64,000 nt of DNA from Candidatus Eiseniibacteriota bacterium (lineage in GTDB: Bacteria; Eisenbacteria; RBG-16-71-46). The DNA is taken from assembly GCA_963717505.1 (NCBI GenBank), contig OY970342.1, positions 298,791 to 362,790 on the forward strand, in the 5' to 3' direction. Shown in pieces: positions 26,566 through 28,570 of the stretch (within the stretch, counting starts at the first letter, position 1; each line of letters opens with the position of its first letter). A program made the translations under genes and the position numbers. Under the pieces are notes generated by a model. The model was given only the letters and a program-made list of their open reading frames with translations, searched no databases and was not told the DNA's origin.

Positions 26566-26692
26566 CTCCGACCCGTGGCCAACTGTCCGCACGGACAGTA
26601 GGTGTCCCCGGGGACACCTAGTTCGTTGATCCCACTGCCGGCGGCTCCCCTCCTTTGTCGGACCTGGGCGCGAGTGCGATTGTTCAGGGGCG

Positions 26693-27847
26693 ATGAGCCC
26701 CGCCAAGATCGACTCCGCCGCCACGACGCGCAGCACGCCCAGCGCGCCCGCCGATCGCCTGCTCGCCGCTGAACAGATCGTCACCAGCCCCGAGACCCGG
26801 CTCAGCTACCGGATCGAGCGTTTCCTCGGCCAGGGCGGGTTCGGCCAGGTCTACCTGGCGCGCCGCCTCGGCCGATCTTCCAAGATCGCCGAAACCGTGT
26901 GCATCAAGATCAGCGTGCACATCGACGGCTGGCTGCGCGAAGCCTACTTCGGACAGCTCCTCGACGATCACCCGCGGGCGATCCGCGTGTTCGACACGTT
27001 CCCCCTGCTGACCGCCGACGGCCAGGTGCGCTATTGCCTGGCGCTCGAGTACGCGCGCCATGGCGACCTGCGCATGTACCTGCGCCGCGCCGGCAAGGGC
27101 TGGCCCGAGCGCACCGTGCGCCGCGAGATCGCTGGCATTCTCGAAGTGCTGGGCAAGCTGCATCGAGGCCAGATGCTCCACCGCGACCTCACACCGCTCA
27201 ACGTGTTCGTGTGCGAGGGGCCGACCCTCAAGCTCGGGGACTTCGGTATCGTCCGCCAGCAGAGCGACCGCCGCGGAATCACCGCGCGCACGCTGAATCC
27301 GTTCACCGCGCCGAGCGACATCCTGGCGGGTGCGGTGCCCAAGTGGCAGGCGCGCGACGACGTCTATCAAGTCGGGCAGTTGCTGGGCATGCTGGTCAAA
27401 GGCGATGCCGACGCCCGGATTCGCCAAGGCGAGATCCGCCGCCTCGCGTGCACCGACCACCTGAAGGAGATCGTCTACCGGTGCATCGGCGAGCGGCGCA
27501 AGCGCTACGAGAGCGCCGACGAGCTGATCGATGCCCTGCGCAATCCGCCGGCGCCGCTCAAGATCGGCGTGCTCCGGTCGCTCAAGGGCGTCCACCTGGC
27601 GTTCACCGGTACGCTCAGCAAACCCCGCATCGTGGCGGCGCGCGCCGCGCGCCGGGCGGGCGCCATCGTTCACGGCGCGCCGTCCGCGCAGACGACGGTG
27701 GTGGTGCGCGGGCGGCCGAACGCGCTCCAGGCCGCCGGCAAGGACGCGGGGCTCAAGCTGATGGAGATCAAGCGCCTGCGCGAGAAAGGGCACAAGATTA
27801 CGCTGCTCAACGACGCCCAGTTCTGGCGGCTGGTGCGCAAACGCTGA
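26693..27847 (+). CDS. Hanks-type Ser/Thr protein kinase fused to a C-terminal BRCT domain
   Basis: Kinase motifs LGQGGFGQVY (G-loop), HRDLTPLNVF (catalytic loop) and DFG. C-terminal …LKGVHLAFTGTLSKPRIVAARAARRAGAIVHGAPSAQTTVVVRGRPNA…GLKLMEIKRL…ITLLNDAQFWRLV has the BRCT pattern, as in the LigA C-terminus. Confidence 0.85.
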   Translation: MSPAKIDSAATTRSTPSAPADRLLAAEQIVTSPETRLSYRIERFLGQGGFGQVYLARRLGRSSKIAETVCIKISVHIDGWLREAYFGQLLDDHPRAIRVFDTFPLLTADGQVRYCLALEYARHGDLRMYLRRAGKGWPERTVRREIAGILEVLGKLHRGQMLHRDLTPLNVFVCEGPTLKLGDFGIVRQQSDRRGITARTLNPFTAPSDILAGAVPKWQARDDVYQVGQLLGMLVKGDADARIRQGEIRRLACTDHLKEIVYRCIGERRKRYESADELIDALRNPPAPLKIGVLRSLKGVHLAFTGTLSKPRIVAARAARRAGAIVHGAPSAQTTVVVRGRPNALQAAGKDAGLKLMEIKRLREKGHKITLLNDAQFWRLVRKR

Positions 27848-27866
27848 AAGCTGTTTGGCGAGCGAC

Positions 27867-28226
27867 CTAGCTCCGAGTTCGGGCCGACCTCGGATTACGC
27901 GCCGCGATTGCATACGCGTCGAAATATCTTTGCAGGGAGATCTCAGTTGAGCCGTACTCGTTCGAGCCATGAAGAAAGTCCACGACGACTTCCCGAGCCC
28001 GGGCGATTTCGCGGAGGCGGGCGACGGAGCCGCGAAGCCGCGGATCCGTAAGTGTCAGATCCAGGAGCTCCAAAGCTCGTTCCAGCGCGCCCTCGGCCAG
28101 ACGCTCATTCCGCCCTTTCCACCGCGATGCCCGGCTCACTTCGCTGCCGATGTTGCCAAGCTGCTCGAAGAGCGTCAGTTCATGCCACCGACCCGCGGCC
28201 AGATCACGATGACGAGCGCCGCTCAT
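27867..28226 (-). CDS. Hypothetical ~119-aa helical protein (second gene of overlapping pair); family not recognised
   Basis: Start ATG 28226 (MSGARHRDLAAG…) forms an ATGA overlap with the upstream gene's stop. The longer track ORF (to 28346) overlaps its partner by 124 nt and is rejected. Confidence 0.5.
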   Translation of the reverse strand: MSGARHRDLAAGRWHELTLFEQLGNIGSEVSRASRWKGRNERLAEGALERALELLDLTLTDPRLRGSVARLREIARAREVVVDFLHGSNEYGSTEISLQRYFDAYAIAARNPRSARTRS

Positions 28227-28570
28227 CGCTGCACGAGGCGCCGGACCAGTTCTACAATGCGGTTCCGAGTCGCCGCATCGTCTACGGCTCGAGAGCGATT
28301 CCCGAGCGATGGCCGCAGGTTGATCATCGAGTCGAACTCGAGCCACTCCTCCTCGGGAAGGTCGGGATACAGGTTGATGCCCCAGAGATCCTGCTGACGA
28401 GACCCGTCCGCGAGGAACATCGCTTCCTCGTCAGAATGCATTTCGGCATCTACCAGCATGATCCCCTGCTCCACGTCGACCACGGCCTTCACGAGTTCCC
28501 CGAAACCAGCGACTGCCATCTCTCTGAGTTCCGCCAGGGATATCGGGGTCTGCAAAGTCACTTTTTTCAT
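28223..28570 (-). CDS. Hypothetical 115-aa protein (first gene of overlapping pair; …DLWGINLYPDLPEEEWLEFDSMINLRP…); family not recognised
   Basis: ATG at 28570. The local AT-richer patch (27850-28600) contrasts with the 69% GC flanks. Confidence 0.5.
   Translation of the reverse strand: MKKVTLQTPISLAELREMAVAGFGELVKAVVDVEQGIMLVDAEMHSDEEAMFLADGSRQQDLWGINLYPDLPEEEWLEFDSMINLRPSLGNRSRAVDDAATRNRIVELVRRLVQR

Follow-up and report, generated by a model that had tools for sequence, protein, structure and literature searches.

The kinase-BRCT gene and its setting

The window (the whole stretch of DNA analysed, 64 kb in length) carries on its forward strand a gene encoding a protein kinase with a C-terminal BRCT domain (Table 1). 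An earlier note had described this reading frame as a Ser/Thr kinase fused to a BRCT domain of the NAD-ligase type, and our analysis bears this out, the best PDB matches of the C-terminal domain being the BRCT domains of LigA and RFC1. The immediate neighbours are also as described there, namely a small protein with a hydrophobic helix on one side and an overlapping gene pair on the opposite strand.

Table 1. Features of the kinase-BRCT gene and of its neighbours (positions in the window; res, residues of the encoded protein)
Feature	Position	Strand	Basis
127-aa protein with N-terminal hydrophobic helix	26182-26565	+	ORF list
Whole CDS of the kinase-BRCT protein, 384 aa and TGA stop	26693..27847	+	ATG start; ORF list
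N-terminal tail, res 1-38	26693..26806	+	Model pLDDT, conservation
Hanks-type (eukaryotic-like) protein kinase domain, res 39-285	26807..27547	+	Pfam Pkinase
Gly-rich loop GQGGFGQV (res 46-53) to VAIK-type lysine K72 (VCIK)	26828..26908	+	Translation
Catalytic loop HRDLTPLN, res 163-170	27179..27202	+	Translation
DFG (res 183-185) and activation segment DFGIVRQQSDRRGITARTLNPFTAPSD, ending in APS instead of APE	27239..27319	+	Translation
Short Pro-rich linker PAPLKIGV, res 286-293	27548..27571	+	pLDDT <50 at res 288-292; family alignments
Predicted BRCT domain of LigA/RFC1 class, res ~294-384	27572..27844	+	Family profiles against PDB, predicted fold
β1-α1 loop and start of helix α1, T305-G306...R312 (FTGTLSKPR)	27605..27628	+	LigA/RFC1 alignments
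G353-L354-K355, start of helix α2	27749..27757	+	Full-domain alignment to 2owo
Overlapping gene pair (ATGA overlap), convergent with the kinase gene	28223-28570 and 27867-28226	-	ORF list

Several properties mark the frame as a genuine gene, as opposed to an ORF left open by chance at high GC: its GC3 is 0.906, both of its halves have a low dN/dS and its full-length homologues number in the thousands. The homologue search retrieved an identical protein (P0001) as well as full-length homologues sharing 77-87% identity. Both halves of the gene are under equal, strong purifying selection (dN/dS of 0.166 for the kinase half and 0.171 for the BRCT half, against 80 orthologues). An antisense ORF (26684..27970, 428 aa) was rejected as a shadow ORF. 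The protein itself is predicted to be soluble and made of two modules, with no membrane anchor: no hydrophobic helix is visible on inspection of its sequence, and the C-terminal transmembrane helix and basic juxtamembrane motif of YabT-type kinases are absent, the C-terminus being predicted to fold as a BRCT domain instead.

No second copy of the gene or other kinase was found within the 64-kb window, no Rfam or tRNA match was found across it, and a promoter and terminator scan returned nothing. A palindrome 5' of the gene is found in the window alone and has no conserved counterpart in relatives; a different 13-nt palindrome occurs in one subclade only. Known LexA-box types are not enriched in the upstream regions of 78 loci, and SOS regulation of the gene was therefore rejected.

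A Hanks-type kinase with a Thr-for-Lys catalytic loop

The N-terminal tail comprises two parts. Residues 1-20, rich in Ser and Thr, are predicted to be disordered (pLDDT 32-33). The conserved extension that follows, residues 21-38, contains S32 and T35 and is modelled as a strand lying against the N-lobe (pLDDT 90-93 at residues 21-40, strand at 29-31). S32 never varies within the core family, and position 35 is Thr or Ser in 39 of the 50 broad-family members.

The kinase domain is recognised by the Pfam Pkinase model (PF00069) over residues 39-242, with 76.7 bits for a cut-off of 31.7 (E = 2.5e-21), and the same model matches all 50 diverse relatives. Among the best 60 PDB sequence matches listed for this domain are CDK6 (~1e-14) and PknB (~1e-13 to 1e-14). 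The NCBIfam model PknB_PASTA_kin also matches the kinase core, with 56.7 bits as against a family cut-off of 450. With the full-length predicted model as query, Foldseek retrieved Aurora A and other generic kinases with poor rmsd, and no solved structure joining a kinase and a BRCT domain; confidence in this model is mediocre overall (pLDDT 70) and drops below 50 in the catalytic and activation loops, and the model is uninformative on inter-domain contacts.

The G-loop, HRD and DFG motifs that the earlier note regarded as complete are indeed all present, but the catalytic-loop lysine is replaced by T167 and the APE motif reads APS. No variation is seen in the core family at the glycines G46, G48, G49 and G51, the lysine K72, the helix-C glutamate E83 or the DFG motif, and these residues are found in 47-50 of the 50 broad-family members; in the latter, D183 and G185 are found in 50/50 and F184 in 49/50, and the subdomain XI arginine R271 is conserved in 46/50. 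Thus, the catalytic set (G-loop, K72, E83, HRD, N170 and DFG) is near-invariant in both the core and the 50-member broad family. HRD and N170 are canonical, and it is the Lys of HRDxKxxN that has given way to Thr167, the family pattern being HRD[LI]TPxN. T167 is shared by all 46 core members, while Thr, Ser and Lys occupy this position in 43, 3 and 4 of the 50 broad-family members, respectively; at the surveyed loci, all 79 family genes encode Thr, as against Lys in 13 other Hanks kinases. The equivalent of APE reads APS-D (residues 206-209), of which the first three residues (A206, P207, S208) do not vary in the core family but do in the broad one. No conserved Ser or Thr is found in the activation segment of the 50 broad-family members.

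Judged by these motifs, the Ser/Thr kinase module looks catalytically competent, and its Thr-for-Lys loop may still support protein phosphorylation, although the change might lower or alter phosphotransfer. The substitution resembles the Bud32/RIO-type atypical kinases. Because the catalytic-loop lysine is a threonine and APE is APS, we considered that the protein could act mainly as an ATPase, a nucleotide-dependent switch or a scaffold like Bud32 or RIO, which the BRCT domain would deliver to a partner. Such a role would account for the fixation of HRD[LI]TPxN in the family, and weak matches to atypical families do occur: NCBIfam Bud32 on residues 113-194 of the protein (E from 5e-5 to 0.1), and Pfam Kdo, ABC1, APH and RIO1 in many of the 50 members. 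We nonetheless regard it as improbable, since the other catalytic residues (down to the HRD Asp) are near-invariant, canonical Pkinase scores lie far above those of the atypical families, the best PDB sequence matches (CDK6, PknB) are canonical kinases and purifying selection is strong. The replacement of Lys by Thr, fixed in the catalytic loop of the family, raises an enzymological question of its own.

A basic BRCT domain of the LigA/RFC1 class

A domain search of the kind proposed in the earlier note supports the two halves unequally. Unlike Pkinase, the Pfam BRCT model (PF00533) scores below threshold on the protein itself (15.0 bits for a cut-off of 21.3, E = 0.031, residues 297-357), and a precomputed PF00533 match exists for only one of the 120 closest homologues listed. 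The BRCT assignment is made instead because of three other results. First, PF00533 matches 36 of 50 divergent full-length homologues with E <= 0.01 (best 4.2e-7). Secondly, when compared with the PDB, family profile A5 retrieves ten LigA and RFC1 BRCT entries with E-values of 6e-12 to 4e-9, the next class (Rad4/TopBP1) reaching only ~1e-4, and family profile A2 yields the same LigA/RFC1 top matches (E = 0.002-0.006). Finally, structure prediction of the C-terminal region does give a BRCT fold, as the earlier note had anticipated, with the topology β1-α1-β2-β3-α2-β4-α3.

Alignments place T305-G306 and R312 opposite the TG and R of the LigA 'LTGSLSQMSRDDA' and RFC1 'ITGVLESIERDEA' segments. All three residues are invariant in the core family, and in the broad family T is kept in 46/50, G in 44/50 and R in 45/50 members. 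Similarly, G353-L354-K355 aligns with the GSK of 'AGSKL' in E. coli LigA, making K355 the presumed pocket lysine; G353 and K355 are invariant in alignment A5, and K355 is found in 48/50 sequences of A3. T305, G306, R312 and K355, which presumably form a phosphate-binding pocket, are thus kept in 44-48 of 50 members, down to ~30% identity. Roles of the T-G pair, the α1 Arg and the α2 Lys in the BRCT phosphate pocket were reportedly described by Kobayashi et al. in 2006 and 2010.

The second feature of the domain is its charge. The BRCT domain has a net charge of +16 and a pI of 12 (+16 to +17, pI 12, in the core family), and is positive in 50/50 diverse members, with a median of +9; the net charge of the kinase domain ranges from -16 to +27. 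The C-terminal module is thus a solitary and extremely basic BRCT domain that belongs with those of LigA and RFC1.

Possible ligands of the BRCT domain

Conservation of the pocket cannot tell ligands apart, because other BRCT domains bind phosphoserine peptides or poly(ADP-ribose) there. In particular, the same pocket binds pSer in other BRCT domains (PMC10386641). The domain might thus read a phospho-Ser/Thr epitope on the kinase itself (e.g., at T/S35), on a primed substrate or on a scaffold, with no involvement of DNA; the outcome would be dimerisation, feedback or priming-dependent phosphorylation, like that of the FHA domains of bacterial STK pathways or of the BRCT domain of the FCP1 phosphatase. 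The conserved T/S-G...K pocket corresponds to the pSer-binding pocket of those other domains, and an RD kinase with a Ser/Thr-rich tail and a conserved T/S at position 35 could provide such an epitope. Several observations make this phosphopeptide reading rather unlikely. The profiles place the domain with LigA/RFC1 (~1e-11) and away from Rad4/TopBP1, and the conserved R312 is a feature of the LigA/RFC1 class. The domain is also single, whereas the +3 specificity groove is formed by a tandem BRCT repeat. Furthermore, its extreme and conserved positive charge suits a polyanion better than a peptide, and the lack of a conserved Ser or Thr in the broad-family activation loop argues against self-recognition of a phosphorylated loop.

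Polyanions other than DNA would be compatible with the conserved basic surface, which does not separate one polyanion from another. The domain could read RNA 5'-phosphate ends, poly- or mono-ADP-ribose, NAD-derived nucleotides or polyphosphate, the kinase then reporting that ligand, and there is a precedent in the central BRCT domain of XRCC1, which reportedly binds both PAR and DNA (PMC6334254). We hold this to be improbable, as duplex DNA is the documented ligand of the closest BRCT relatives, LigA and RFC1, and as the gene neighbourhood contains no pointer to ADP-ribosylation or RNA metabolism.

Genomic context and mobility

The earlier note had read the neighbouring genes as a hint of a phospho-signalling, DNA-damage or defence connection. 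This reading does not survive comparison with related loci. When 13 genes of the window were searched by tblastn against 80 related loci, none had a match beside the kinase gene, and de novo clustering of flanking ORFs at these 80 loci revealed no conserved neighbour, the commonest one being a response regulator (9/80). In addition, the four annotated neighbourhoods of relatives all differ and are mostly metabolic. The operon or defence-island interpretation was therefore dropped. Neither the 80 loci nor the four annotated contigs show a DNA-repair or replication gene as a conserved neighbour. When IMG/VR viral contigs were scanned using the family alignment, no relatives were detected, and a mobile or phage origin was rejected on this basis.

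These data also bear on the idea that the protein is a single-gene anti-phage defence kinase, of the kind of PD-T4-6, Stk2, Mad6 of MADS or PglW of BREX, which would sense phage DNA ends. PADLOC does report matches to mad6 (88 bits) and PD-T4-6 (84 bits), NCBIfam reports Mad6 (54 bits), and there is a weak GapS2 match on the BRCT domain. However, these matches correspond to the generic kinase core, with scores similar to that of Pfam Pkinase and far from the family cut-offs (54 versus 460 for Mad6, 14.8 versus 990 for PglW). Moreover, the gene has no conserved partner genes or defence-island context, is absent from the IMG/VR viral contigs, and behaves as a conserved orthologue and not as a patchy, fast-evolving gene. 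A defence function of this kind is consequently close to refuted.

The family shows 66-96% pairwise identity across 73 genomes and is slightly more conserved than its syntenic neighbours. The kinase-BRCT gene is thus a stand-alone gene, which appears to be vertically conserved in Acidobacteriota.

Distribution and annotation of the family

Relatives were recovered from 430 species-level genomes, nearly all of them Acidobacteriota MAGs, and 207 clusters at 50% identity are found with E <= 1e-30. The nearest homologues of the window protein suggest an Acidobacteriota-like host. The MAGs of some relatives are labelled Eisenbacteria, Binatia, Acidimicrobiia or Saccharimonadaceae. The fusion, which the earlier note had called unusual, is thus not rare: it is common in Acidobacteriota and widespread among their soil members. 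The description remains apt with respect to publications, as no paper on a bacterial kinase-BRCT protein was found in the literature searched. In databases, the architecture is already partly flagged, since many divergent members carry a precomputed PF00533 match, fragments bear the JGI name 'BRCT domain type II-containing protein' and a UniRef name reads 'BRCT domain-c...'. Core-subfamily proteins, on the other hand, are labelled only 'protein kinase' because the Pfam BRCT model misses the domain there.

The sensor modules already known on bacterial Hanks kinases include PASTA, FHA and TPR domains. As for BRCT proteins, a 2023 review gives only LigA and Pol III epsilon for most bacteria. The kinase-BRCT family represents a third, abundant bacterial BRCT architecture, which physically couples Ser/Thr phosphorylation to a predicted DNA-binding module of DNA-ligase type, in a major, poorly studied phylum that is dominant in soil.

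A possible DNA-tethered kinase

A DNA-related role is the best inference from the subclass and charge of the BRCT domain, and not from the neighbouring genes. We give about an even chance to a model in which the BRCT domain tethers the kinase to DNA, perhaps at 5'-phosphate nicks or ends, where it would phosphorylate DNA-associated proteins. Under this model, the BRCT domain would serve as both a targeting and a sensor module, binding DNA through its T-G/R/K phosphate pocket and positive surface. Its likeliest ligand would be duplex DNA in which a nick, gap or end bears a 5'-phosphate, like that of the RFC1 and LigA BRCT domains. Binding could then gather kinase molecules on DNA and favour their activation in trans, after which the DNA-bound kinase would phosphorylate DNA-associated proteins, e.g., replication, repair or nucleoid factors. 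Binding to 5'-phosphate DNA, DNA-dependent activation and the nature of the substrates are extrapolated from sequence, and published precedents exist for individual steps: the Rfc1 BRCT domain grips the backbone of duplex DNA (PMC9293009), that of LigA contributes to nick joining (PMC10386641), and YabT of B. subtilis is a Hanks kinase which is activated by a DNA-binding segment and phosphorylates RecA (PMC3708118, PMC6333020). Against DNA tethering, we count the range of ligands that this pocket binds in other BRCT domains, the extra DNA-binding elements of RFC1 that are not evident here, the Thr-for-Lys change in the kinase, the absence of a conserved repair or replication neighbour, the lack of LexA-box enrichment and the mediocre full-length model.

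A more specific version of the model, which we put forward only tentatively and are more inclined to doubt than to accept, would make the protein a one-polypeptide sensor kinase for DNA nicks and ends. The BRCT domain would read 5'-phosphate termini (breaks, gaps or Okazaki-type nicks) and activate the Thr-loop Hanks kinase, which would act on replication and repair proteins. If the domain does bind nicks or ends, the fusion would connect protein phosphorylation in a simple way to DNA lesions or replication intermediates.

Comparison with known systems

The closest sequence relative of the BRCT domain is that of LigA (PDB 1l7b, 2owo, 1dgs), with E-values of 6e-12 to 3e-10 for the family profile. 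The alignment to residues 598-670 of E. coli LigA spans the whole domain, and TG, R and GxKL as well as the β-α-β-β-α-β-α fold are common to both. The LigA domain is carried by a ligase, however, whereas that described here is carried by a protein kinase, displays two insertions (~8 aa after β3 and ~5 aa before β4) and is far more basic. The BRCT domain of RFC1/p140 (PDB 2k6g, 2k7f, 2ebu, 7tfh, 7u19) is part of a eukaryotic clamp loader and has no attached kinase; to bind DNA, it relies on an additional N-terminal helix and on composite surfaces or neighbouring domains, which are not evident in the kinase-BRCT protein.

On the kinase side, PknB and the PASTA kinases PrkC/Stk1 share the kinase fold and the core motifs with the present protein, which differs from them by the absence of a transmembrane helix and of PASTA repeats, and by a Thr in place of their catalytic-loop Lys. 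YabT is a functional analogue: it is a Hanks kinase with no extracellular sensor, and its basic DNA-binding segment is required for trans-autophosphorylation (PMC3708118, PMC6333020). In YabT, however, the C-terminal helix is a membrane anchor, and DNA is bound by a short basic juxtamembrane motif and not by a folded BRCT domain. YabT is not among the best 60 PDB sequence matches listed and has no relation to Acidobacteriota. The resemblance is functional only. If DNA does activate the kinase-BRCT protein, it would be a second example, after YabT, of a DNA-activated Hanks kinase.

Finally, eukaryotes follow the same logic of pairing a Ser/Thr kinase with a BRCT or FHA targeting module, in Cdc7 with the BRCT domain of Dbf4 and in the FHA-kinases Rad53/Chk2. 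Dbf4 BRCT structures are among the Foldseek matches (E ~3e-4), at a sequence identity of only 13-14%. In these eukaryotic systems, however, the BRCT domain lies on a separate regulatory subunit (Dbf4), or else the fused module is an FHA domain, and shared ancestry with the kinase-BRCT fusion is not implied. A nick- or end-sensing kinase, if such is its function, would be an independently assembled bacterial counterpart of eukaryotic DNA-damage checkpoint signalling, present across a dominant soil phylum.

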